A DNA stretch of 10,491 bases from a virus. Lineage: Duplodnaviria; Heunggongvirae; Uroviricota; Caudoviricetes. The DNA lies in IMG/VR virus record IMGVR_UViG_2690316028_000010. One strand, 5' to 3'. The notes under the pieces are model-generated. The model did no database searches. It worked only from the letters and a program-made list of their open reading frames with translations, and was not told the DNA's origin. A program made the position numbers and the translations under genes. Shown here piece by piece: positions 1-10,491 of the stretch (the first letter of the stretch is position 1; each line of letters opens with the position of its first letter).

Positions 1-780
1 TTATGGCCTTGTATTTCCTTTTCTTAACTTCTTTTCGCTCTTTTTTACAAGCTTAATTAACCACTCTGGCTCATCCGACAGTTCGGAGTAATAGCAGTAT
101 TCTGGTATTGCTTTCCAAAATGTTGTTATTGCATCAGCAAATTCAACAAACTGTTCTTCTGTTACATGCAGATCATCATGAGTAGGATTGATATGTCTGC
201 CGCATATACCAGTAGGATGAGGGTAATATTCTGGATGAGTTGATGATAGGAGGCGGTGAGAATTTCCATCACCATGTTTGTACACATTTACGACTAATGC
301 GCACGCTTTGAGCTTATCGCCATAATCAGTTTCATCTATCTTGAGACCGATCCACTCGAGCAGTTTCAACAGTTGATCAAAATTTAAATCCCAAACCATT
401 GGTGTAATGATCTCTTTATCACACCAATGAGACAATTCTCTGATCGTTTTTTCTCGTAACTTTTTATCGAACTGGTGATACATACCCGCAGTTACTGCCA
501 AAAGAACAGTTTCTTGCATTTCAATAAGTGACCAGACGTAGTTTACACCCTCCTCATATGCTTGCTCATAGGCTGCCATTGGGTCGTCAAAATCAGGATT
601 GAAATGCTCAGCGGTATACTCCAGAAACTGTTTCTCTCGCTCCTCCGCCTCTTGGGTCAGATCCCCAAACTGAGACAAAAGTCTCCGTCTTGCTTCCGAA
701 ACATAAAATTCGTGAGGTTCAAGAAAATAGGGCCGATCTACTTTAGCAAGCCAAAATGTCACGAAGTTATCTGATGACAT
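1..780 (-). CDS. hypothetical protein, 259 aa, AT-rich accessory gene; function unknown
   Basis: Complete ORF: ATG at 780-778 (plus 'cat'), stop TAA at 3-1. SD-like 'aagga' about 7 nt upstream on minus strand. Protein has mixed composition, not low-complexity. Local GC is clearly lower than the central block (by-eye count of the first 120 nt ~37%). No family recognised. Confidence 0.6.
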   Translation of the reverse strand: MSSDNFVTFWLAKVDRPYFLEPHEFYVSEARRRLLSQFGDLTQEAEEREKQFLEYTAEHFNPDFDDPMAAYEQAYEEGVNYVWSLIEMQETVLLAVTAGMYHQFDKKLREKTIRELSHWCDKEIITPMVWDLNFDQLLKLLEWIGLKIDETDYGDKLKACALVVNVYKHGDGNSHRLLSSTHPEYYPHPTGICGRHINPTHDDLHVTEEQFVEFADAITTFWKAIPEYCYYSELSDEPEWLIKLVKKSEKKLRKGNTRP

Positions 781-924
781 AACTTATCCTTGATAATTAT
801 TGTATGGATAGATTATCCAGAAATTTGCGAACTGAGTCGGTCATTTTTTTTTGTGTGCGCGTGATGTAATAAAGGTTCAGGAATATACTGTCAGTTTACT
901 GAAAAACTGGCAACAGAGGCGGTT
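781..924. promoter_or_regulatory. divergent intergenic region between the 259-aa gene (minus) and the 75-aa gene (plus); presumed to hold both promoters
   Basis: 144-bp AT-rich gap with a T9 run (843-851) between two outward-facing start codons. No confident -35/-10 pair could be assigned by eye. Confidence 0.3.
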
Positions 925-1152
925 ATGAGCGAGAGTTACGAGTTCTCAGCAGGTTGTTTTTTGAAGCTATCAATATCTTCAGGGTATTTCACTATCAAAA
1001 TTCAGGGAGATCTCCCCGCTCGTGCAGCTAGTGCCATCTTGGCAGATGATGTCGAGCAGGTTTTATCTCAACTAGACAAATGTTTTCAGCTGAGTAATAG
1101 GCAACGAGAAGGGATCGTTAAGTATCTTATGTCGAAGGGGATGCAGCCTTGA
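925..1152 (+). CDS. hypothetical small protein, 75 aa
   Basis: ATG at 925 preceded by SD 'agagg' (915-919). Stop TGA at 1150-1152 overlaps the next gene's ATG (TGATG), indicating translational coupling. Confidence 0.5.
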   Translation: MSESYEFSAGCFLKLSISSGYFTIKIQGDLPARAASAILADDVEQVLSQLDKCFQLSNRQREGIVKYLMSKGMQP

Positions 1153-1610
1153 TGACTTGGATCACCCAAACAGATAACTGGACAGGGATCGCGGCGTGGG
1201 CGGGTTTTGCTTTGTCCGTATTTCAATTACTAAAATCCAGAACATCGCTAAGGCTTTATCTCGGATGTGATCAGCACGAGGACAGGATATACGTTTCGAA
1301 CATAAGCGCACACGATGTAACGTTGAGTGCAGCCGGTGTGGTAACAGCCAGTGGACGCCTTAGAATGTTATCCGACGAATATTCGGACGAGAACATGATC
1401 ACACCGATGCTGCCAAAAAGATTGAAAGCACGAGACGAAATGGTCTTGAACGTGCCATTCATAAATAAGGCTCATCACAACAAAGTGCATCATCGTGGCG
1501 GGGTTTATATCAAAACATCTGACGGCAAGATGTTCAGTGATGTTTGTTGGATCAAACGCCAATGGTGGTGGTTACTGTCTGTAATACTACGAGACACAAA
1601 GCGATACTAA
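1152..1610 (+). CDS. hypothetical membrane-anchored protein, 152 aa from ATG 1152 (ORF track starts at TTG 1149)
   Basis: Start ATG 1152 overlaps upstream stop. One N-terminal hydrophobic stretch 'WTGIAAWAGFALSVFQLL' (~1182-1235) consistent with a single TM helix or signal anchor; remainder hydrophilic with a His-rich patch (HHNKVHH). Stop TAA 1608-1610. Confidence 0.5.
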   Translation: MTWITQTDNWTGIAAWAGFALSVFQLLKSRTSLRLYLGCDQHEDRIYVSNISAHDVTLSAAGVVTASGRLRMLSDEYSDENMITPMLPKRLKARDEMVLNVPFINKAHHNKVHHRGGVYIKTSDGKMFSDVCWIKRQWWWLLSVILRDTKRY

Positions 1611-1639
1611 GTTGATTGATAGTCCGAGGTGATGTTCTG

Positions 1640-1657
1640 CCCAGCGTAGTTGCTGGG
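1640..1657 (+). terminator. weak hairpin downstream of the 75/152-aa pair (6-bp stem cccagc/gctggg, 6-nt loop)
   Basis: Inverted repeat 1640-1645 / 1652-1657. No following U-tract, so at best a weak terminator or RNA structure. Confidence 0.2.
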
Positions 1658-1690
1658 TGATACACCTTCAATGATTCTTGTTAGTGTGTA

Positions 1691-1699
1691 GGGGGGGGG
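1691..1699 (+). repeat. homopolymeric G9 tract immediately upstream of the 72-aa ORF start
   Basis: Sequence 'gggggggggc' then ATG at 1701. Upstream in-frame stop TAG at 1689-1691 places the tract in the 5' UTR / ribosome-binding region, not inside coding sequence. Confidence 0.9.
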
Positions 1700-1700
1700 C

Positions 1701-1919
1701 ATGTTGGATTTTAAAGCTGAGTTTGTTGGCGGCAGCCATAGCGGCGAGGTTATATCACCGATGTCCGAGGTAGAACTTAATAAACTAGGGTATAGAGTCC
1801 ATTTACGTGGTGCCCCCTCTGGCGATGAAATGCCTGTACACGTTGTTGTACCTATTGAATGGTCAGCGGATGAAGCACACAGAGCCATAATGCAGCGCTG
1901 GGGTAAACGCAGACGGTAG
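1701..1919 (+). CDS. hypothetical small protein, 72 aa, basic C-terminus (WGKRRR)
   Basis: ATG 1701, stop TAG 1917-1919; G-rich SD-like sequence directly upstream. Composition more protein-like than the overlapping minus-strand ORF 1607-1930 (S/P/T-rich). No family recognised. Confidence 0.45.
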   Translation: MLDFKAEFVGGSHSGEVISPMSEVELNKLGYRVHLRGAPSGDEMPVHVVVPIEWSADEAHRAIMQRWGKRRR

Positions 1920-2301
1920 ATGTCGCGCATTTCTCTTAAACTGGCTGCTGTGTTTGGTGCTAATTATCCATGCAAAGTGGCCTAAGCTACGTGGAAGAAT
2001 GATCAGTTTCGCATTATTTGGTTCAAGGAGGGCTCCCCCACAGCCTCACTCTCTGAATGCAAAACAGCCCCACAATCCCACTGTTAAAAGTCCCAGCTTG
2101 AAAATTGCACGCTTATGGTTGCCCCTCCCTCAACTCTATAGCTCGCCCGCGCCCCCGTGTGCATGTGCGTGCCCGCGCGTCAGGGGTCGCTGAGAAACCC
2201 TAAGATTTTGCTCATCCGAGACAAGCATTACCTGCACCTGTAAAACGCGAAATTACCTCTCAAACACCACACATAAACCCACTTTGCATTGAGATCTGAC
2301 A
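1920..2301. other. ~380-bp GC-rich, apparently non-coding spacer with C-rich runs and an alternating purine-pyrimidine tract
   Basis: Only ORF here (1954-2193) is Pro/Ala/Arg-rich and low-complexity. Contains 'gcccgcgc' twice (2146-2153, 2171-2178) flanking 'gtgtgcatgtgcgtg' (2157-2171). Sits upstream of the capsid-like operon. Confidence 0.4.
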
Positions 2302-2649
2302 ATGACCTTACTGACACCTGAAAACGTGGCAGCGGCTAGGGCTGCCCGTAGCGCGAGGATTGAACACTGGAAAGCCAACGCCAGCCAGCTTAAGCAGGAC
2401 TTTGCTGACGAAGCGCACTGGCGGCGGCTCGCCTCACGCTTCGGCGTGCGTATGCCCTCGGCGTATGTTCCCGGCTCCGAGCTGCGATTGCTGCGCCGGG
2501 CGGCCAAACGCGCGGGCATCTCTGGTGCTGATATGCGCGATGCTTTTGGTGGGGGCGTTGCGCACCTGCACGAGCTTAATCCCCATTGGCCTGCCTTCGC
2601 GCTTATCGGCCTGATTCTTGAGATCGCGGCTGAAAAAGCTGCTGCCTGA
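2302..2649 (+). CDS. hypothetical protein, 115 aa, Ala/Arg-rich with hydrophobic C-terminus; first gene of the capsid-like operon
   Basis: ATG 2302, stop TGA 2647-2649. Codon third positions G/C-biased, consistent with real coding in this GC-rich block. Function not recognised; a small scaffold or packaging-associated protein are possibilities only. Confidence 0.5.
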   Translation: MTLLTPENVAAARAARSARIEHWKANASQLKQDFADEAHWRRLASRFGVRMPSAYVPGSELRLLRRAAKRAGISGADMRDAFGGGVAHLHELNPHWPAFALIGLILEIAAEKAAA

Positions 2650-2717
2650 TTCATCCCATTCTCTTTTCCCCTTTTCCATAAATCGCGCTGGCTAACGCTG
2701 GCGCGGGAGCTATTTCT

Positions 2718-3713
2718 ATGACTGACAATGTTTATACCCCTGACCAATTCCGCCCGCACTGGGGCGGTGTAGATGCTGACAACGACATTCACATTGAAGC
2801 GTATGACCGGGACGTTCAGACCCGCCTTGAGGCAAAGAGCGTGTTTCTCGCCGAGGGGCTGAGCACATACAAGCCGCTGAAAAACAGTAATCAGTATCGT
2901 GTAGACCGCCTGAGCGGAGATCTGGAGGTGAAGGGCAGAACCGCAGGGCAATCGCTGGAGCCTACCGCCGTTAAGTCGGACAAGCTGATTATCTCTGTGG
3001 ATACGCTGAGCTATATCCGCATCCCGATTGACTATCAAGACGACTGGACAGCGCCCACCTTTCGCGCAGAGCTGAGCCGCAACATGGGGACAGCCCATGC
3101 AAAGTTCTACGACGAAGCGCACACTATCCAGCTAATCAAAGCGACTGACTTTGTACCGCCGCCTACGTTGCAACCAACGTTTAACCCGCTGACGGATAAT
3201 GTTGTCTCGCTCGACCTGACAACGGGGAGCGAAGAGGATGCGGCTAACGAACTGGTTCACGCTATTAAAGCTGCTGTTAATCGATTCCTAACTGAAAAAG
3301 ATATTCCGGTGGCGGAGCTGTGCCTTCTCATCGACCCAGCTTGGTTCAGCATCCTGATGGAACATAAGAAGTTGATGAACGTCCGTTACAGCCGGGATAG
3401 TGGCAATGATTACGCATGGCGTCGCGTTGGCTATGTCGCTGGGGTGCGAGTTATTGAGCTGAACAGTTACCCGCAGGAAGCCATTACCGCGCATGAACTG
3501 GGCGCTGATTATGATGTGACCGCAGGGGAAGCGCTGACACGGGCGACGCTGTTCCGGCCTGCGTCTGTACTTGTGACAGTCGAAGCGCAGAGCGTTATCA
3601 ATCGCCAGTGGGATGATGAACGCGAAATGACAATGGTGATGGACTCATATCGCCTGTTCAATGTTGGGCTGCGCCGCCCTGACTGCGTTATAAATTTCCG
3701 ACAAGCTGCATAA
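2718..3713 (+). CDS. putative phage major capsid protein (HK97-fold / T7 gp10-like), 331 aa
   Basis: ATG 2718 with SD 'gggag' ~8 nt upstream; stop TAA 3711-3713. Several segments resemble T7-type capsid proteins from memory (e.g. 'IPVAELCLLIDPAWFSILM', C-terminal 'GLRRPDCVINFR'). Followed 17 nt later by an HNH gene, a common capsid-module neighbour. Similarity is by recall, not alignment. Confidence 0.5.
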   Translation: MTDNVYTPDQFRPHWGGVDADNDIHIEAYDRDVQTRLEAKSVFLAEGLSTYKPLKNSNQYRVDRLSGDLEVKGRTAGQSLEPTAVKSDKLIISVDTLSYIRIPIDYQDDWTAPTFRAELSRNMGTAHAKFYDEAHTIQLIKATDFVPPPTLQPTFNPLTDNVVSLDLTTGSEEDAANELVHAIKAAVNRFLTEKDIPVAELCLLIDPAWFSILMEHKKLMNVRYSRDSGNDYAWRRVGYVAGVRVIELNSYPQEAITAHELGADYDVTAGEALTRATLFRPASVLVTVEAQSVINRQWDDEREMTMVMDSYRLFNVGLRRPDCVINFRQAA

Positions 3714-3729
3714 CAAAAGGGGCCGAGCC

Positions 3730-4161
3730 ATGAATATTGATGCTTATGCCCCGGAGCTGTTGCGCTCTTTGTTTCGGTACGATGCGAAGACTGGCCGCCT
3801 GTTCCATGCAGTAGACCGGATCGGAGCCAACAAGCGGATTTACGCTAAAGCCGGGGAACTGGCCGACACGGTAACGGACAGCGCCGGATATAGGCGCGTA
3901 TCTGTCCGCATCAATGGCAAATCTCATGCGCTATACGCCCACCGTGTCGCCTTCATCATTGCTAATGACGGTATCCCTGCCGGGATGCAAATCGACCATA
4001 TCAACGCGGTACGCGATGACAACCGCCTTATCAATCTCCGCACGGTTACGCCACAAGAGAACCAGCACAATTACCGCAAAGCCAAGGGTTATAGCCACCA
4101 TGCCTGCTCTGGCAGATGGGAGGCTTACATTCGCGTTGGTGATCCACCGCGCGATAAATAA
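3730..4161 (+). CDS. HNH endonuclease (HNH_3-type, phage-associated), 143 aa
   Basis: ATG 3730 with SD 'aaagggg'; stop TAA 4159-4161. Clear HNH signature 'IDHINAVRDDNRLINLRTVTPQENQHN' and the N-terminal 'GYRRVSVRINGKSHALYAHRVAFI' pattern typical of this family. Confidence 0.85.
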   Translation: MNIDAYAPELLRSLFRYDAKTGRLFHAVDRIGANKRIYAKAGELADTVTDSAGYRRVSVRINGKSHALYAHRVAFIIANDGIPAGMQIDHINAVRDDNRLINLRTVTPQENQHNYRKAKGYSHHACSGRWEAYIRVGDPPRDK

Positions 4162-4200
4162 GCCGCAATCCGTGAGATAAATGGACACGGTGCGGCTTTT
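4161..4200. terminator. bidirectional intrinsic terminator candidate between convergent HNH and tape-measure genes
   Basis: Imperfect hairpin: 'agccgca' (4161-4167) pairs with 'tgcggct' (4191-4197), inner stem 'ccgtg'/'cacgg', followed by TTTT (4197-4200) on plus strand and an A/T-rich run on the other side. Lies in the 66-bp gap between the two converging stop codons. Confidence 0.5.
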
Positions 4201-4227
4201 CAGATACTGCAAAGGAATTACAGATTA

Positions 4228-6711
4228 TCAGTCGTAAGCAACCCGGCGCTTACGGGCAAGGATAGCTTCCAGTGCTCTTTCAATCTCAGGAATGGACAGC
4301 TTAAGCGCATTGGCCACATCCGGTGCTGGTGACTTGTTCTTGCCATCAATATAGATATTGTTAATGACGTTAATCCCGCCGCCTGCGCCTGCTGGTGAAT
4401 GAGAGTCCCGGCCTCTGGGTAAGGTAAGGTCGCCGCGCATATAGCGCTCTAATACGGGGGGTACTTTCGGCACATCCGGCACCATCATATCAGCCAGCCG
4501 CGAGGAGGCTTTCAGCGCCAGTGATGCAGACTGACCAATGCCAATCGCCGCCCCTTCTGCGATATTAGACCCGAAGCCCATAAATACACGGCTTGGCGAG
4601 TGAATCCCCAGCTTTTCCTTGAACCAGCCGCCGACACTGTCACCCATCTCAGTGACGGTATTCTTGAGAGACTCCCACTTGTTTTTGATACCGTTCACCA
4701 GTCCATCAATCAAGTGACCACCAAACTCAGTAAACTGGCCGGGAAGGTCGATGTTAAACCACTTCATGACCCCCGCAAACGCCTTGTAGAACAGCCCCAG
4801 CGGCGACCAGTTCAGGATTAGCTTACTGACACCAAGAACCCCGCCGTTAAAGGCTGTTTTCACTTCCTCCCACCGCTGCGAGAACCATCGGCTTATCGCG
4901 CCCCAGTTGCGGTAAATCAGGTACGCGCCCCCGGCGATGATGGTTATCGCAATGCCTATGGGGTTCATTAACAGCGCCCTGCCAAACCAGAGGAAAGCCT
5001 TTGCCACCACCATTACGCCTCTGAACAGTCCACCCGCCAGCGCTTTACCCAGCATTCCGGCTCCCTTCGCCACGGTACTGAATCCGGTAGCCAGCCAGCG
5101 CAGCTTTCCGCCGTCGCTCAGGGCGGTTTTGAGCAACAGCCAGTTAGTGCGCAGCAGTACGGCGTTTTTCCACAACCCGGCGAACGGTGATACCAGCAGA
5201 TTCAGGCCGAGTTTCAGCCCGACAGTGGCGATTTTCAGCCCCAGCAGTACGCCCACGGTTTTTGCCACACCCTGAACAATGCCGGGATGTTGCGCTATCC
5301 ATTGCCCGGTGGAATGAATCAGCGGAATCAGTTGCTGCGTCATTGACACGAACGAGGGAGACAGTTGACTGCCAAGGGTAATGGACAGTTCGCGGGTGCT
5401 GACCATCAGTGCTTTGGTCGCCTCCAGCGGCGATTTCAGTCGCTCCGTGTAGGAGGAGGCCAGCAGGTCTTTATCCGCCGCCTTAAGTGCGCCAGCCCTG
5501 ATTTCGCGGTATTTGTCCATGTTGGCGAGCATCGGACGGACAAACGCCATGACCTGCATATCGGCGAACATCTCACCCAGACCGAAATTCTTTGCCAGTT
5601 CCTGTAACGCAAGGTCGCGGGAGTTATCGTCCTTGATTTTCATTGCTTTCTTGAAGCCTGCCAGTGCTTCCGGGCTTTTGGCCTCCAGATACCTGCCCAT
5701 GACGCTTATCATGCCCTCAATGGGCGAGACGCCAGCAGATTTATAAGCCATGAGTGACCCCTGAAGGTCAATCCCGATATCGGCAAACTGTTTCTGCGTG
5801 TCGCGGGCAAAAATCTTGGTGAGGAAGTTACGGAAGTTGTTACCAGCCTCGTCAGATGACCCGGCACCAATTCGGGCAATCTGTAAACTCGCTCCGATTT
5901 CCGCCATCGCTTCTTTACCTTCGGCAATACCGCGCATCATCGGGGCAAGAGATGGCATCCATTTCACCTGGTCAGGTATTTCAAAAGACCCTTGGTCGCC
6001 TGCAAAGGCCATGATGTTCTGTACTTTGGCAAACTCTTTAGCGCTGCCATCCATCGAGTTTTTCCAGACGGCGGCAACCTTCGCCCATTCCGTCCCTGTG
6101 GTGCGTGTGGCAGTAGCGGCGCGGGCTATATTGGGCATGAAGCTGCCAATTTCGGACACACTGTCGATATTGTCACTGATAAGCGAGCCTACGGCGTCCT
6201 GTAAGTCGCTCTGGTACTGGTTGTACTTGAGCGACCATCCCCGGATTTGCTGCCCCAGACTGGCGCGGGTTTTATCGTCATATTTCGCCGTGATCGACAT
6301 ATCAATCATCTTGTCGTCGAACGTAGCCGACTGCTGAATCGCCGGGGAAACGAGGCTGTAAGCGGCTTTGGCCTGCGCCCACGTCTCAATTCCCTGTCCA
6401 TAAAGCGCCATCCGGTTAGCTCTCAGGGCATCGGTTGTGGCAGACGCTGCCGACAGGCGGGACTGCTGGCGGTTTAGTTGCTCCAGCGTTCTGCCTACCC
6501 GTTGCAGGTCATTGTTCAGGCGTGAGGCCACGCCTGAACCTACCTGACCGTAACGCTGCATGGCGCGTGACAGGCTGCTTTGTTGCTCGGTCAGGCGGCG
6601 TGACGTGTCGCCGAGAGAATCAAGCGCCCGCCGTGTGCCGCTGACGGCGGAACGGAAGCTGCTCCCGACAATACCGCCAATCATCACACCAACAGAAAAA
6701 TTATTGCTCAT
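4228..6711 (-). CDS. phage tail tape-measure protein, 827 aa
   Basis: ATG 6711-6709 with SD 'ggagtg'; stop at 4228. Helical N-terminal region, long central Gly/Ala/Leu-rich hydrophobic segment, and C-terminal 'GIHSPSRVF'-type motif that I recall from tape-measure proteins. Size is typical. Confidence 0.75.
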   Translation of the reverse strand: MSNNFSVGVMIGGIVGSSFRSAVSGTRRALDSLGDTSRRLTEQQSSLSRAMQRYGQVGSGVASRLNNDLQRVGRTLEQLNRQQSRLSAASATTDALRANRMALYGQGIETWAQAKAAYSLVSPAIQQSATFDDKMIDMSITAKYDDKTRASLGQQIRGWSLKYNQYQSDLQDAVGSLISDNIDSVSEIGSFMPNIARAATATRTTGTEWAKVAAVWKNSMDGSAKEFAKVQNIMAFAGDQGSFEIPDQVKWMPSLAPMMRGIAEGKEAMAEIGASLQIARIGAGSSDEAGNNFRNFLTKIFARDTQKQFADIGIDLQGSLMAYKSAGVSPIEGMISVMGRYLEAKSPEALAGFKKAMKIKDDNSRDLALQELAKNFGLGEMFADMQVMAFVRPMLANMDKYREIRAGALKAADKDLLASSYTERLKSPLEATKALMVSTRELSITLGSQLSPSFVSMTQQLIPLIHSTGQWIAQHPGIVQGVAKTVGVLLGLKIATVGLKLGLNLLVSPFAGLWKNAVLLRTNWLLLKTALSDGGKLRWLATGFSTVAKGAGMLGKALAGGLFRGVMVVAKAFLWFGRALLMNPIGIAITIIAGGAYLIYRNWGAISRWFSQRWEEVKTAFNGGVLGVSKLILNWSPLGLFYKAFAGVMKWFNIDLPGQFTEFGGHLIDGLVNGIKNKWESLKNTVTEMGDSVGGWFKEKLGIHSPSRVFMGFGSNIAEGAAIGIGQSASLALKASSRLADMMVPDVPKVPPVLERYMRGDLTLPRGRDSHSPAGAGGGINVINNIYIDGKNKSPAPDVANALKLSIPEIERALEAILARKRRVAYD

Positions 6712-6742
6712 GGTTCACTCCGGTTGAGTGGTTCGGTGGGCG

Positions 6743-7336
6743 TCATTCAGTCAGGGACAGGCCGCTGATTCCGGTAATCCCGGCAATTTCTTCGCTGACG
6801 GCTGCCAGTTCACTTTCAAGCCCGGTGCGTTCGCTGACCAGTGCCGCCACGGTCTTACGGCGCTCTGCCAGTGAGGGAAGTTTGTCATTACCCCACGTCA
6901 CGCTCTTATCCTTCTTAAGCGCTTCGGTCAGTCGGGTGGCGACCACATCCGGGAAGAAAAAGCAGAGCTTGCGCATTACCGCCATCCCGGTATCAGCCGG
7001 GGGGACGTTTCCTCCCAGCCCCACCAGACGGAACAGACCGGAAATATCGCCGTTCTCATTTTCCAGATTGCCCCAGCGTTCGGCGTTCCCTTCACCGCCG
7101 GAACCGTTGCAAAGAGCACGCTTGAATGACTGATATTCTTCCTGCCCGAATCGCTCAATATATTCAGGAATAAAGGAACAGTAATCATTAAGTGATAACG
7201 GCATATCCTGTAATGCGGTTATTTCGCCATTAATATCACCAATGCGACGAGAGAGCTTTTCTTTCTGCTCATTCAGGGAGGTAAGGTTATTTTTAACGGC
7301 GTTCAGTGCTTCAATGAGGGAAATAACAGGTTTCAT
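6743..7336 (-). CDS. hypothetical protein, 197 aa, coiled-coil-like N- and C-termini; possible scaffold-like or tail-assembly accessory protein
   Basis: ATG 7336-7334 lies 1 nt after the upstream gene's TAA (taaAATG) with SD 'ggag' inside the upstream gene's 3' end; stop TGA 6745-6743. Heptad-like ends; no slippery heptamer seen at the 3' end. Confidence 0.5.
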   Translation of the reverse strand: MKPVISLIEALNAVKNNLTSLNEQKEKLSRRIGDINGEITALQDMPLSLNDYCSFIPEYIERFGQEEYQSFKRALCNGSGGEGNAERWGNLENENGDISGLFRLVGLGGNVPPADTGMAVMRKLCFFFPDVVATRLTEALKKDKSVTWGNDKLPSLAERRKTVAALVSERTGLESELAAVSEEIAGITGISGLSLTE

Positions 7337-7337
7337 T

Positions 7338-7952
7338 TTAATAACTCCAGATAAAAGGTGTAGTGAGGGTGAGCGCTTCGGAATAGGAGACGTTGCAGGC
7401 TTCGCTTACATCCTTTATTAAAAGGTGCTGCGCTGCCCTCTGGCTGTCGGCTATGCCGTCGAGCTCTGAGAAATAAACGTGTGATTCATTGTGACCAAAA
7501 CAAACCGGGTAAGCGCTTTCCATAAACTCCACCTGCTCAAGCCCCTTTACGGCTGGCGGCTGTGCGCCGAGAAAACCAATATGGCGAAGATACCAGGCAC
7601 CAGTTCCGGCCGGGTTACGCGCTTCTCCCGGCCTGTAGAAAGCGGCAGACACTTTTTTATATAGACCTGACTGAACCATATCCAGCAACCTGTTATCAGG
7701 CTTAACCAGCGCGAAAAGTCTGCCGTTTTTACTTATCAGTCCGGTGGTTTCACCATAGGCGGGACTGTTACTGGCCGGATGCCCCAGGCACAGCGGCGCA
7801 CCATAACCCGCGCGATGATAGCCGTTATAGGCTGCTGCCATGTTGTCGATATCCTCGTCGGAAAAGCTGATTTCCTGCCCCGCCATCGCGGTATGTGTTC
7901 CCGCCCGGAATATCTCAATAGTTTTCCAGTTACCAATATTGATATCTGTCAT
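7338..7952 (-). CDS. putative GPO-family prohead protease / capsid scaffolding protein, N-terminal protease-like domain, 204 aa
   Basis: ATG 7952-7950; stop TAA 7340-7338. Recalled resemblance to P2 gpO N-terminus: 'FRAGTHTAMAGQEISFSDEDIDNMAAAY' vs gpO 'FRIGVEGDTCDGRVISAQDIQEMAETF', and 'LCLGH' vs gpO 'INLEH'. Shorter than P2 gpO (~284 aa). Confidence 0.55.
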   Translation of the reverse strand: MTDINIGNWKTIEIFRAGTHTAMAGQEISFSDEDIDNMAAAYNGYHRAGYGAPLCLGHPASNSPAYGETTGLISKNGRLFALVKPDNRLLDMVQSGLYKKVSAAFYRPGEARNPAGTGAWYLRHIGFLGAQPPAVKGLEQVEFMESAYPVCFGHNESHVYFSELDGIADSQRAAQHLLIKDVSEACNVSYSEALTLTTPFIWSY

Positions 7953-7953
7953 T

Positions 7954-8481
7954 TTATATTTGTCCCTGTTTCATATCGCGGCACTCTTTGTTTTTCTTAC
8001 GCTCGGCGGCAATAATCTGATAAATCCACTGAATAGAATTGCCATATTTCCTGGCTAATTCCCGATGAGTCATCCCTTGTTTGTAATCGGAAAATATCCT
8101 GGCATTTCTGTCGAAAGAGTTTCTGGCTGCGCCATTAGGTATATAGAAATTGTTACCTTTAAAGACCCTTCTAAGGTGTTCTGTAATTTCCGGGGAAATG
8201 ATTTCGGCCTGAGCCGAAAAGCAATGTATTGTAAGCAAAGCCTGCGCTATCACACCTGTAAGCTCATGCAGAAAAGATGTTGCTTTAGGGGCGTCTTCAC
8301 ATTCTATTGGCATGTAATTCTGGCAACCACCAAGATTATCAGATATATGCAAAACAATTTTATTTGCTGCACTACTTGCCTGAAGTTGTGAATAGCCCGC
8401 ATCAGTCAGAAAATCTTCAATCGCATCCCCCATTTCCCCCAGAGTGTCAGATGTTGCGTACAATCCCTCTCTTGTAATCAT
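7954..8481 (-). CDS. Mor/C-family transcriptional activator (Mu middle/late activator family), ~175 aa from ATG 8481
   Basis: C-terminal region matches the Mor pattern: 'NFYIPNGAARNSF' (cf. Mor 'QVYIPRG'), 'RIFSDYKQGMTHRELARKYGNSIQWIYQIIAAERKK' (HTH). ATG 8481-8479 has SD 'gagg' ~7 nt upstream; the ORF-track start at 8487 is a GTG too close to the SD. Stop TAA 7956-7954, 1 nt before the next gene's start. Confidence 0.75.
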   Translation of the reverse strand: MITREGLYATSDTLGEMGDAIEDFLTDAGYSQLQASSAANKIVLHISDNLGGCQNYMPIECEDAPKATSFLHELTGVIAQALLTIHCFSAQAEIISPEITEHLRRVFKGNNFYIPNGAARNSFDRNARIFSDYKQGMTHRELARKYGNSIQWIYQIIAAERKKNKECRDMKQGQI

Positions 8482-8509
8482 AATCACACCTCGGTAATGA
8501 TAAAGATGT

Positions 8510-8614
8510 GCGCTAAAAAGGCTTTATAAAGCTTTATGAGGCGTCTTTCTGGTGACAAATCAGCACATACACCATTAACGCTTTAAAATGGCTTACAGGC
8601 TTTTTTAGCGCGGG
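8510..8614. promoter_or_regulatory. regulatory region upstream of the Mor-like gene: 12-bp palindrome, tandem 'gctttat' and flanking 10-bp inverted repeats
   Basis: 'ataaagctttat' perfect palindrome at 8526-8537; 'gctttat' at 8521-8527 and 8531-8537. 'gcgctaaaaa' (8510-8519) is the inverse of 'tttttagcgc' (8602-8611). Promoter hexamers not confidently assigned. Confidence 0.35.
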
Positions 8615-8681
8615 TTACTAATGTGGATTAAGAATATGGTTTTGGGGCGGGGATGTTTTTTAATGTACTTTAGATATGAAG

Positions 8682-8703
8682 AAGCCCCTCAGAGGAGGGG
8701 CTT
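8682..8703. terminator. GC-rich hairpin (9-bp stem, 4-nt loop) immediately downstream of the 96-aa gene; candidate intrinsic terminator
   Basis: 'aagcccctc' (8682-8690) pairs perfectly with 'gaggggctt' (8695-8703), loop 'agag'. Sits 17 nt past the TAA at 8722-8720; the flanking run on the minus-strand transcript is only moderately U-rich. Confidence 0.45.
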
Positions 8704-8719
8704 GCGGGATTACGCCAGA

Positions 8720-9010
8720 TTATTGAGGTCGTCTGTCTTTCCTCAATCCATCAAGTAGCGCCATGGCATCAGTAACCAGTATGCCAGCAGCATCCGTAAC
8801 CATCGAAACATCAGAGGATGCACATGATTTATCCATACCTAATGTTGACGCAAAATCAAGTAGCTTACGAACTGCGTCAAGTCGATAGGTGGCAGAGTCG
8901 TAAATTAACTCCTGATTAGCATCAGTCTTTAAAAACATAATATCATCAGAGGCACCTTGCGAAAATGACGGCATCGCACGGAAAGTATTTTGAGTTTCAG
9001 CCTGTTTCAT
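8720..9010 (-). CDS. hypothetical protein, 96 aa
   Basis: ATG 9010-9008 overlaps the upstream gene's TGA (ATGA, coupling); SD 'ggagg' ~8 nt upstream; stop TAA 8722-8720. Confidence 0.5.
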   Translation of the reverse strand: MKQAETQNTFRAMPSFSQGASDDIMFLKTDANQELIYDSATYRLDAVRKLLDFASTLGMDKSCASSDVSMVTDAAGILVTDAMALLDGLRKDRRPQ

Positions 9011-9744
9011 TGTGCAGTCCTCCGGCTAATAGCGAATTTATTATAAACTTCATAACTGGCAGCATTCAGTCCGGGGTTGTATTTATCAGCCAGAGCACAG
9101 GCAATCATATGTTCAATAAATTTTGTTATTGCGTTAAGTTCAGTTTCGTTTGAATAACGCAATGCCACTTTGAGTAACTCGCGGCAATATTGTTTTTTAT
9201 TCCCTTCGATTTGGCCTGATTTTTTTATTCCTGCCTTTTTATCTGATTCATCCTCAACAGGCAAAGATGGGATATCCTCTTTATTGGTTAGCGTTCTTTC
9301 GCAAATAATATCTTCACCAGATTGAATTACGCGCTGCAACTCTCTGGCGCTCATACGAAGAATATCATCAAGCGTGTGGTCGTTATATGCCCCACCACTG
9401 GCAAGGAGATCCAGTGTCACTTCATCCAGCCGGGCAAGCAGGTTTAACTTCGTTTTGCCGATACTTGTTTTGGCAATTGCGGCTCGGGGGGTATTGGTTA
9501 CGCCAAATATCAGAGCAACCCGCATAGCATTATGGGCTTCACGTTTATTAATTCCCCCCACTGAAAGCGCCTTTGCAAATTCCTCATTTGTTTTTGTTGC
9601 TTCCTTAAGTGCCAGCATCTCTTTACCACGATGCACTAAAGTTTCAGTCGGGGTTGGCAAAAGGAGTACAGCATCTAAAATTTTTTCCCGAAGTACATCA
9701 ACTTGGCTTGCGATGCATGAACGGTTAGACTTGTTGATACCCAT
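9007..9744 (-). CDS. hypothetical protein, ~245 aa from ATG 9744 (ORF track begins at TTG 9765); candidate early/regulatory protein
   Basis: ATG 9744-9742 preceded by SD 'gagga' ~9 nt upstream; stop TGA 9009-9007. Acidic/Lys-rich linker mid-protein; no P-loop or other catalytic motif recognised. Divergent from the RHH gene. Confidence 0.5.
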   Translation of the reverse strand: MGINKSNRSCIASQVDVLREKILDAVLLLPTPTETLVHRGKEMLALKEATKTNEEFAKALSVGGINKREAHNAMRVALIFGVTNTPRAAIAKTSIGKTKLNLLARLDEVTLDLLASGGAYNDHTLDDILRMSARELQRVIQSGEDIICERTLTNKEDIPSLPVEDESDKKAGIKKSGQIEGNKKQYCRELLKVALRYSNETELNAITKFIEHMIACALADKYNPGLNAASYEVYNKFAISRRTAQ

Positions 9745-9774
9745 GATTGTTATCCTCAATAACAATGGTGGTCA

Positions 9775-9809
9775 GGCAGGATGTGATACTGAACCTATCA
9801 TGTCCTGCC
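9775..9809. promoter_or_regulatory. imperfect dyad symmetry (13-bp arms, 11/13 matching, 9-bp spacer) upstream of the 245-aa gene
   Basis: 'ggcaggatgtgat' (9775-9787) vs 'atcatgtcctgcc' (9797-9809). Could be an operator or a 5'-UTR hairpin of the minus-strand transcript. Confidence 0.3.
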
Positions 9810-9840
9810 GCTTGCGGTTTTACATCTACTTAATGTAATG

Positions 9841-9877
9841 TACGTACCATTGATTTCAATCTAAACAATGGTACGTA
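9841..9877. promoter_or_regulatory. perfect 12-bp inverted repeat with 13-bp spacer (candidate operator) overlapping the RHH gene start codon
   Basis: 'tacgtaccattg' (9841-9852) and its exact reverse complement 'caatggtacgta' (9866-9877). The right arm covers the ATG at 9868-9870. Located in the divergent promoter region. Confidence 0.55.
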
Positions 9878-10071
9878 TCATGTCAAGAGTAAAAGATAAC
9901 ACGCCTAAAAATTCCGCAGGGCGTTCCCCGACCTTCCAAATACGTATTACACCTGAACTTAGGGAACAGCTTGATAAAGAAGCTCTTAAAGATGGTGTAA
10001 GTTTGGCCAATTGGCTCAAAGGCATTGCACGAGATGAACTACGCAGGAGAGGTATTTCTCCAAAAGGGTAG
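9868..10071 (+). CDS. ribbon-helix-helix (Arc/MetJ-like) DNA-binding protein, 67 aa; putative repressor
   Basis: 'FQIRITPELREQLDKEALKDGVSLANWLKGIARDEL' fits the RHH beta-strand plus two helices (cf. Arc 'FNLRWPREVLDLVRKVAEENGRSVNSEIYQRVMESF'). ATG 9868 (alternative ATG 9880), both with weak SD; stop TAG 10069-10071. Confidence 0.6.
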   Translation: MVRIMSRVKDNTPKNSAGRSPTFQIRITPELREQLDKEALKDGVSLANWLKGIARDELRRRGISPKG

Positions 10072-10086
10072 GGCTAATCAGGTACA

Positions 10087-10476
10087 AAAAGCGAAAACGT
10101 TTTCGCTTTTATGGCTAAGAGAGCGGATGCACTCATTAAAGCGGACAGCGCTGTCCGCCTCCAATCAGCAAAAAAACAAGATGGTTCCTCCAAAACGCTC
10201 AACGTTGAGCGTTACGTTATTCCGACAAAAGCGCAGGCGCTTGCGCTTTTGAAAGGGATCAACACGGCTTTCAAACCGGACAACGTTGACCGCTTTAAGG
10301 AATCACTGTCGGCTGAGCAAAAACGGCAAGCGCTTGCCGTTTTAGATTCGCGGGGCGGTAAACGTTTACCGTTCTGTGTCAATTATGTTCAAAAGCGAAA
10401 GCGCTTTCGCATTTTCTCACCTAAAGCGGCAAACCTCCTCTGTCTTAGCTGGAAAAACGACATCGCTGTCGTTTTT
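10087..10476. repeat. array of eight hairpin-capable palindromes of one family (A-tract, CG-rich core, T-tract)
   Basis: P1 10087-10110 aaaagcgaaaac|gttttcgctttt (perfect, 24 bp); P2 10141-10158 gcggacagc|gctgtccgc (perfect); P3 10194-10213 aacgctcaac|gttgagcgtt (perfect); P4 10227-10250 (1 mismatch); P5 10320-10343 aaaacggcaagc|gcttgccgtttt (perfect); P6 10356-10371 cggtaaac|gtttaccg (perfect); P7 10391-10414 (1 mismatch); P8 10453-10476 aaaaacgaca-tcgc-tgtcgttttt. Symmetry kept while sequence differs between copies. Confidence 0.85.
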
Positions 10477-10491
10477 AATCCGAGGTTCTAA
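10111..10491 (+). CDS. ORF of 126 aa overlapping the palindrome array; coding status doubtful
   Basis: ATG 10111 directly after palindrome P1, stop TAA 10489-10491 at window end. Repeated peptide motifs (KAQALALL, KRQALAVL, KRKRFRIF) are direct consequences of the DNA palindromes, so the frame may be open by chance. Confidence 0.3.
   Translation: MAKRADALIKADSAVRLQSAKKQDGSSKTLNVERYVIPTKAQALALLKGINTAFKPDNVDRFKESLSAEQKRQALAVLDSRGGKRLPFCVNYVQKRKRFRIFSPKAANLLCLSWKNDIAVVFNPRF

Follow-up and report, generated by a model that had tools for sequence, protein, structure and literature searches.

What is the stretch of roughly 380 bp that precedes the capsid gene in this DNA? The window (the whole stretch analyzed, 10,491 nt) carries at positions 1920 to 2301 an interval that the first-pass annotation had described as a GC-rich non-coding spacer, unusual for compact phage DNA and carrying a Z-DNA-prone motif. 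The functions offered for it were a promoter for a capsid/HNH operon, a packaging (cos/pac-like) site, and a small RNA. We found that the interval indeed has no credible open reading frame (ORF). The ORFs tested, a 79-aa ORF with a TTG start (1954 to 2193) and an antisense 107-aa ORF, had no Pfam or PHROG match at an E value of ≤1, and the RefSeq annotation has no coding sequence on the identical DNA of Escherichia coli LR536431. The start of the 79-aa ORF is not conserved, because the sequence upstream of 2091 varies between the islands described below.

The composition of the spacer departs in part from the earlier description. The repeat GCCCGCGC is present at 2145 to 2152 and 2171 to 2178, on either side of GTGTGCATGTGCGTG (2157 to 2171), with the earlier coordinates off by one base. 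The alternating purine-pyrimidine tract is real, extends over 17 nt (2156 to 2172), and is the longest in the window, but it is weakly unusual; runs of ≥17 nt occurred in 7.5% of mononucleotide shuffles. The spacer as a whole is not GC rich (GC content of 0.50, versus 0.496 for the window), and richness in GC is limited to 2120 to 2190 (0.72).

The premise of compact phage DNA proved to be wrong, since the DNA is a chromosomal island beside a tRNA gene. Positions 1 to 2231 of the window match 6402 to 8632 of the island of E. coli LR536431 (L001) at 100% identity, and positions 2232 to 4139 match L001 14525 to 16432, again at 100% identity. Relative to LR536431, the window lacks 5,892 bp (L001 8633 to 14524) with genes for a serine recombinase, a DEAD-box helicase, and a scaffold-like protein, along with several small ORFs. 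The region is likewise split at about 2230 when searched against complete E. coli genomes. The 37-mer across the junction was absent from the viral (IMG/VR) and metagenome collections, and the junction was not found in any of the complete E. coli genomes either. The 380-bp gap is therefore composite, with 1920 to 2231 and 2232 to 2301 sitting 5,892 bp apart in the intact island. The features of the island part of the window outside the conserved region are as follows.

1920-2090, no strand: non-coding tail of the island's variable cargo module; identical to LR536431, with the last ~55 bp common to an Enterobacter bugandensis island (L016)
2229-2231, no strand: deletion junction with TAC microhomology; TAC is present at both L001 breakpoints; a real deletion or an assembly artifact
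2232-2301, + strand: leader of 70 bp native to the 115-aa ORF; where the island is intact, it forms the 3′ part of the 159 bp that separate this ORF from the scaffold-like gene; no promoter- or terminator-like site
2302-2649, + strand: 115-aa island ORF with no assigned function; phrog_21723, E value of 1e-52; absent from Bonnellvirus
2718-3713, + strand: homologue of the island major capsid protein; phrog_267, major head protein
3730-4139, + strand: HNH_3 endonuclease gene (Pfam PF13392); 175 aa in its L001 homologue; cut short at 4140, where a Mu-like element has inserted

From these alignments, we conclude that the spacer consists of two stretches of non-coding DNA from an E. coli chromosomal island, joined across a 5.9-kb deletion, whether biological or an artifact of assembly. 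The remainder of the window (4140 to 10491) is a Mu-like element that begins with TG at 4140 and truncates the island HNH gene. It carries a tape-measure gene (4228 to 6711), a Mor-family gene (7954 to 8487), a HicB-like gene, and others; in E. coli AW1.7, a 93%-identical copy of ~7.8 kb splits ynbC. Because the deletion and the Mu-like insertion rearranged the window, the "upstream region" of the capsid operon is an accident of decay. In this copy of the island, the genes for the recombinase, the helicase, and the terminase-like and scaffold-like proteins are missing, and the insertion interrupts the HNH gene. The copy has probably lost its autonomy and is expected to be defective, since the genes for replication and the terminase-like and scaffold-like genes are missing although the candidate signal described below has been kept.

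One part of the spacer is conserved far beyond the window. A 44-bp block and a segment downstream of it recur in other islands.

2091-2134, + strand: 44-bp block TCCCAGCTTGAAAATTGCACGCTTATGGTTGCCCCTCCCTCAAC, the proposed packaging/terminus recognition signal; homologous to the phage sequence that spans the left boundary of the Bonnellvirus terminal repeat
2135-2224, + strand: conserved "type 1" segment downstream of the block, seen in E. coli matches and Enterobacter islands

We found the block in 52 islands, whose hosts span at least six enterobacterial genera (the named hosts are Escherichia, Enterobacter, Trabulsiella, Kluyvera, and Kosakonia, in addition to 40 metagenome loci). A degenerate block pattern retrieved seven further species genomes (Trabulsiella, four Enterobacter, Kluyvera, and Kosakonia) and 41 metagenome loci, comprising 40 islands and 1 Bonnellvirus. 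Since retrieval demanded the pattern, conservation inside the block is partly ascertained in this set; the E. coli BLAST search and the phage-profile search described below are free of this ascertainment. In the E. coli search, 15 of 20 among the matches listed cover just ~2076/2091 to 2224 (~135 bp), at 94 to 96% identity and with unrelated flanks. Matches occurred in complete E. coli genomes at a frequency of 107 of 5,426 for type 1 and 52 of 5,426 for type 2. Megablast counts of E. coli genomes were 59 for the capsid gene and about 150 for the block; we made no use of this comparison for co-occurrence, because megablast misses diverged capsid alleles.

The two sides of the block differ in character, with variable cargo on one and a fixed gene order on the other. 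Upstream, there are at least 14 unrelated flanks across the 52 islands (at least 13 besides that of the window). Downstream, there are about three sequence types, and type 1, to which the window belongs, is the sole carrier of the flagged GC-rich motif. Short remnants of the island were also seen in metagenomes, where loci L059, L065, and L066 combine the block with genes for a divergent recombinase, a DUF4062 protein, an HTH protein, and a truncated integrase, and chromosomal genes come directly after. These remnants keep the block, and decay like that of the window is therefore common.

This distribution bears on the functions first suggested for the spacer. A Z-DNA-prone motif found in one of three island variants, and missing from type 2 and type 3 islands, is not a conserved core. 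A sigma-70 promoter region for the capsid/HNH operon could be sought in 2232 to 2301, the native leader of the 115-aa ORF. However, we found no sigma-70-like site (−35/−10 upstream of 2302) in 1850 to 2350, where 0.5 was expected from a consensus scan that is blind to weak and non-sigma-70 promoters, and no terminator-like site in the same interval; the adjacency of the capsid gene itself arose by deletion. The same scan of intact islands gave one weak promoter in L002 and none in L001. A structured small RNA is unsupported as well. There was no Rfam match at an E value of ≤1 in 1600 to 2700 and no tRNA in the examined region, and folding of the core DNA gave z-scores near zero on the two strands (0.08 and 0.22). 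With the 17-nt alternating run as the remaining point in its favor, an explanation of the spacer as a promoter, small RNA, or Z-DNA element is very doubtful indeed.

We compared the spacer with 50,697 phage records (2.3 Gb) by BLAST. The match runs from window position 2092 to ~2169, with a best E value of 9e-9, and the sole phages matching 1920 to 2301 belong to Bonnellvirus (Autographiviridae) or to a few unannotated or unclassified enterobacterial phage records of ~42 kb. In the annotated phages, the match falls in non-coding DNA, with the last late gene (endolysin) on one side and the first early gene (SAMase) on the other. The block is identical at 38 to 39 of 44 positions (86 to 89%) to altidsur, Kc261, and megetsur, and at 31 to 32 of 44 positions to Lidtsur and J8-65. 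A profile of the phage junction (nhmmer) matched 2091 to 2173 with an E value of about 2e-15.

The location of the match in J8-65 is informative. This genome is deposited as linear, with identical 259-bp terminal repeats at 1 to 259 and 40723 to 40981, and the block aligns to 40685 to 40727, across the start of the annotated repeat. The left end of J8-65 reads TCGACCCGAAGG..., and the right-hand copy of the repeat is preceded by ...GGGCCTCCC or, in a longer view, by ...GCTTGAAAATTGACTATTTGTGCGTGGGCCTCCC. The window reads ...GCTTGAAAATTGCACGCTTATGGTTGCCCCTCCC|TCAACTC..., and the homologous boundary therefore lies at 2129|2130, with the physical end of the phage placed as in the GenBank annotation of one depositor (J8-65). 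No mapping of Bonnellvirus ends was found in the literature examined. The alignment adds two features to the window.

2129/2130, + strand: predicted terminase cut between ...CCCTCCC and TCAAC...; start of the J8-65 repeat, transferred by alignment
2130-2173, + strand: homologue of the opening ~45 bp of the terminal repeat in the phage (nhmmer with the phage profile, 2091 to 2173); holds the flagged motif (2145 to 2178) and the 17-nt run; type 1 islands only

In the alignment, the flagged GC-rich motif falls on the first ~45 bp of the phage repeat, where GTGCGCG-type tracts also abound. In type 2 and type 3 islands, homology to the phage ends at the predicted cut, with ~45 bp shared. The phage end is poor in A (7 to 10%), and the islands, with 16 to 21% A, show a weak echo of this. 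Types 2 and 3 have a hairpin 38 nt to the right of the predicted cut, with compensatory changes between them (CCCAGCC-GAAG-GCTGGG versus CCTCGCC-GAAG-GCGAGG; L002 1297 to 1313 and the equivalent position of L015); type 1 islands, including the window, are without a clear equivalent. One island has a J8-65-type block and all others have an altidsur-type block, a difference that, judged from the sequences, looks like tracking of different helper clades.

On the evidence of these alignments, we conclude that the conserved core (2091 to ~2173) is a copy of Bonnellvirus concatemer-junction DNA, comprising ~40 bp outside the repeat and the first ~45 bp inside it. The block is, on balance, probably a packaging/terminus signal copied from a helper phage and carried on a satellite-like island, of which the window holds a decayed copy. 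The packaging option of the first-pass annotation thus gains support from homology to a phage genome terminus, although the signal is centered on a 44-bp block (2091 to 2134) that had not been flagged. The cos version of that option does not hold. The candidate helpers have direct terminal repeats (259 bp in J8-65) rather than cohesive ends, so the site would be of the pac or terminal-repeat-boundary type. A link between the HNH gene and cos cleavage is likewise unsupported, as the gene is of the HNH_3 type, which is typical of homing endonucleases. With the phage-junction profile, only the left boundary of the repeat was found in the islands, and candidates for the right-hand boundary had E values above 0.7; an apparent similarity of GTCTCTTT to the right-hand boundary, seen by eye, was dropped. 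Since the right-hand boundary was not detected, regeneration of the terminal repeat is left unexplained by a packaging function.

The main rival is a phage-specific transcription signal, because the block heads a long co-oriented operon. The block would then be a borrowed regulatory element (a special promoter for the phage RNA polymerase, or a sensor site) that switches on the island operon upon helper infection. T7-like phages shut off host transcription, and a satellite would profit from a promoter specific to the phage. In all islands, the block lies 290 to 540 bp upstream of, and co-oriented with, the recombinase-helicase-capsid string (the spacing in one divergent locus is given below). 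However, J8-65 must hold several phage promoters, and the block is single copy in its genome, with one match at ≤3 mismatches and no recurrence of any block 18-mer at ≤4 mismatches. It therefore does not belong to a class of promoters repeated along the genome. In addition, the homology is centered exactly on the annotated genome end. We consider a transcription signal rather unlikely. A search for a phage promoter consensus among repeats in J8-65 gave no clear motif. We noted separately that ATGAAAGTAACTGT recurs between genes of J8-65 (L012) at 5662, 19628, and 19868, and inverted at about 535 to 548, and that its reverse complement is conserved near the left end of all five aligned bonnellviruses; it may be a phage regulatory motif.

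Another alternative is an origin of replication, or a priming site, that the island has in common with its helper. The island carries its own helicase, and T7 has secondary origins near its genome ends. Against this, 2091 to 2224 contains neither iterons nor an AT-rich unwinding region, and an origin would leave the coincidence with the repeat boundary unexplained. An origin is therefore very unlikely.

The gene that follows the block raises a different alternative, a res- or hix-like site for the serine recombinase encoded just downstream. Resolvase sites are commonly upstream of their gene, and a small serine recombinase gene lies 290 to 540 bp after the block in every island for which this stretch is intact and was recovered, bar one divergent locus (L054, ~2.2 kb). 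Examples are L001 9038 to 9658, L002 1633 to 2208, L015 5891 to 6412, and L066 1427 to 2056. These recombinases fall into at least three to four lineages with 25 to 47% amino acid identity, each with its own upstream region of ~180 bp. That the same block precedes such different recombinases argues against its being the recombinase's own site, since an invariant block does not covary with recombinase lineage. Furthermore, the block has no dyad symmetry, and Bonnellviruses carry it even though J8-65 has no annotated recombinase. We regard a recombination site as highly improbable.

Finally, the block could be without function, as a scrap of an ancestral T7-like genome or as an anchor for homologous recombination bordering the cargo hotspot. 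It does lie exactly at the border between variable cargo and conserved backbone, and the islands are highly mosaic, with decayed copies common. However, the block is nearly invariant over six genera while its flanks, including even the adjoining recombinase gene, are swapped, and it is kept even in decayed copies. Its identity to phage also reaches 89%, well above that of the capsid coding sequence (56 to 58% amino acid identity). A functionless vestige is thus unlikely, and a packaging/terminus signal remains our preferred reading.

The gene content of the islands is consistent with a phage satellite. In intact islands, the order is tRNA, variable cargo, non-coding core, small serine recombinase, helicase, small ORFs, a 231-aa scaffold-like gene, the 115-aa ORF, capsid, HNH, a few ORFs, a second cargo site, and a tyrosine integrase; the capsid gene is part of this order where the contig reaches far enough and the island is intact. 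The island of strain S1 is 15,404 bp between 30-bp att repeats of the 3′ end of tRNA-Leu and has a tyrosine integrase. The integrase and att features were read in relatives, as the window stops short of the integrase. These relatives combine an integrase and att repeats with a size that is small against that of the helper. They also hold a partial set of virion genes with helper-related morphogenesis genes, namely, those for the capsid, the scaffold-like protein, and an ORF resembling the N terminus of a small terminase (TerS). No portal, large terminase (TerL), tail, RNA polymerase, or DNA polymerase gene was recognized in the islands. The TerS-like ORF (69 aa; L002 5788 to 5997) resembles the small terminase of J8-65 at its N terminus, with 45% identity in 40 aligned aa (pairwise E value of 8e-6). 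The C terminus of the 231-aa protein (L002 7219 to 7914) matches that of the J8-65 scaffold with an E value of 0.014, and the protein also matches phrog_1018. Both ORFs are present in the intact island and deleted from the window.

The best phage matches of the island capsid are Bonnellvirus capsids, at 56 to 58% amino acid identity over 98% of its length, followed by those of more distant Autographiviridae. The island capsids form a separate group, 95 to 96% identical to the query, versus ≤58% for phage capsids. Because the capsid and the non-coding block both point to Bonnellvirus, two independent routes link the island to one phage genus.

The cargo beside the block (window 1 to 1919; L002 1 to 1074; L067 9086 to 10428) is highly variable and comprises at least 14 unrelated modules. 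The cargo of strain A16 includes an XcyI restriction-modification pair, and the other cargo site of S1 has a TIR-domain gene. The four cargo ORFs of the window had no PADLOC match, and one alone, a 259-aa ORF, matched a PHROG, which is of unknown function. An island with a type 2 block and a capsid gene is present in enteropathogenic E. coli (EPEC) O127:H6 E2348/69 (NC_011601.1, about 4,849,900 to 4,858,350).

These observations suggest a route for mobilization. A Bonnellvirus would infect a cell that carries the island, and the island would excise and replicate. The phage terminase would then recognize the block like its own pac signal, cut at about 2129|2130, and package the island DNA; the capsids filled might be smaller ones, assembled from capsid and scaffold proteins that the island itself encodes. 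By analogy with known packaging systems, the block would most likely be the signal for recognition and cutting of island DNA by the Bonnellvirus terminase. At 15.4 kb, the island has about 0.37 times the length of the helper genome, a ratio that, as an estimate only, would suit a smaller shell. It is pure speculation that the serine recombinase circularizes repeat-bounded DNA after injection. We found no virome contig that ends at the block. Two IMG/VR contigs have an island-type capsid; one (L068, judged by its IMG identifier to be a predicted provirus of an isolate genome) stops before the block position, and the other (L069/L020, 27.7 kb) ends ~200 bp past the block.

We therefore propose, tentatively, that the ~15-kb tRNA-integrated islands of Escherichia, Enterobacter, Kluyvera, Kosakonia, and Trabulsiella could be an undescribed family of satellites that parasitize virulent T7-like phages of the genus Bonnellvirus. 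They might be packaged, by means of a mimic of the terminal-repeat boundary, into small capsids made of their own diverged capsid protein and a truncated scaffold, and the serine recombinase at the leading end might circularize the injected DNA. This wider proposal is quite possible but falls short of the likelihood that we give to the block as a packaging signal.

If the islands are mobilized, they would be a route by which cargo such as a restriction-modification system or a TIR-domain gene spreads between enterobacterial genera. T7-like phages kill fast and shut down the host, and an island would have to respond in time. The proposal is directly testable, since candidate helpers grow on E. 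coli K-12 and islands with the block and the capsid gene are present in studied strains, such as EPEC E2348/69. The spacer of the window is itself a relic, in which a candidate packaging signal outlived the genes for replication and assembly, and its interest lies in the island family. Our literature search, which had most subscription journals outside its reach, found no published satellite of T7-like, Autographiviridae, or Bonnellvirus phages.

Several known systems share parts of this arrangement. Cos-type SaPIs depend on temperate Staphylococcus siphoviruses of the cos type, which have cohesive ends and a terminase assisted by an HNH protein, whereas the candidate helper of the present islands is a virulent T7-like podovirus with terminal repeats. 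Members such as SaPIbov5 carry a copy of the helper packaging site and a capsid homologue, Ccm, that redirects capsid size (PMC8569155). The islands resemble them in the copied helper site, and the island capsid homologue recalls Ccm. In T7 and T3, DNA bearing the concatemer-junction signal (PacB/PacC) is packaged by the phage terminase (PMC9860248). The likeness is that the element acts in cis and sits at the edge of a direct terminal repeat in an Autographiviridae genome. However, the T7/T3 sequence is unrelated to the block, the Bonnellvirus signal is a putative one, and the block is on a chromosomal island, whereas the T7/T3 signal is on phage or on an engineered plasmid.

The P4-like satellites of P2 are tRNA-integrated islands of E. 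coli with a packaging site of the helper type and cargo hotspots that hold defense genes (PMC9122126). The present islands share tRNA integration, a helper-type packaging site, and cargo hotspots with them. P4 differs in that it uses cos and remodels P2 capsids with Sid, without a capsid gene of its own, and its gene content is unrelated. The PLE of Vibrio cholerae is a satellite of a virulent phage, has its own pac site, uses a small terminase-like factor on the helper motor, and forms small capsids (10.1101/2024.04.22.590561, PMC10945586). A virulent helper, an own pac site, and a small terminase-like factor are thus points of likeness, but the PLE helper is a myovirus, PLE capsids are made from the helper coat protein, and there is no sequence relationship. 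Capsid-forming PICIs (cf-PICIs) have the whole module for head formation and DNA packaging (terS, terL, portal, protease, and connectors) and take only tails from the helper (10.1101/2022.09.08.507074). Like them, the present islands encode their own capsid protein and have an HNH gene; unlike them, they show just the capsid, a scaffold-like protein, and the TerS-N-like ORF. Satellites that copy the packaging site of a cos or headful helper are known already; the present islands differ in the candidate helper, a virulent T7-like phage with direct terminal repeats.
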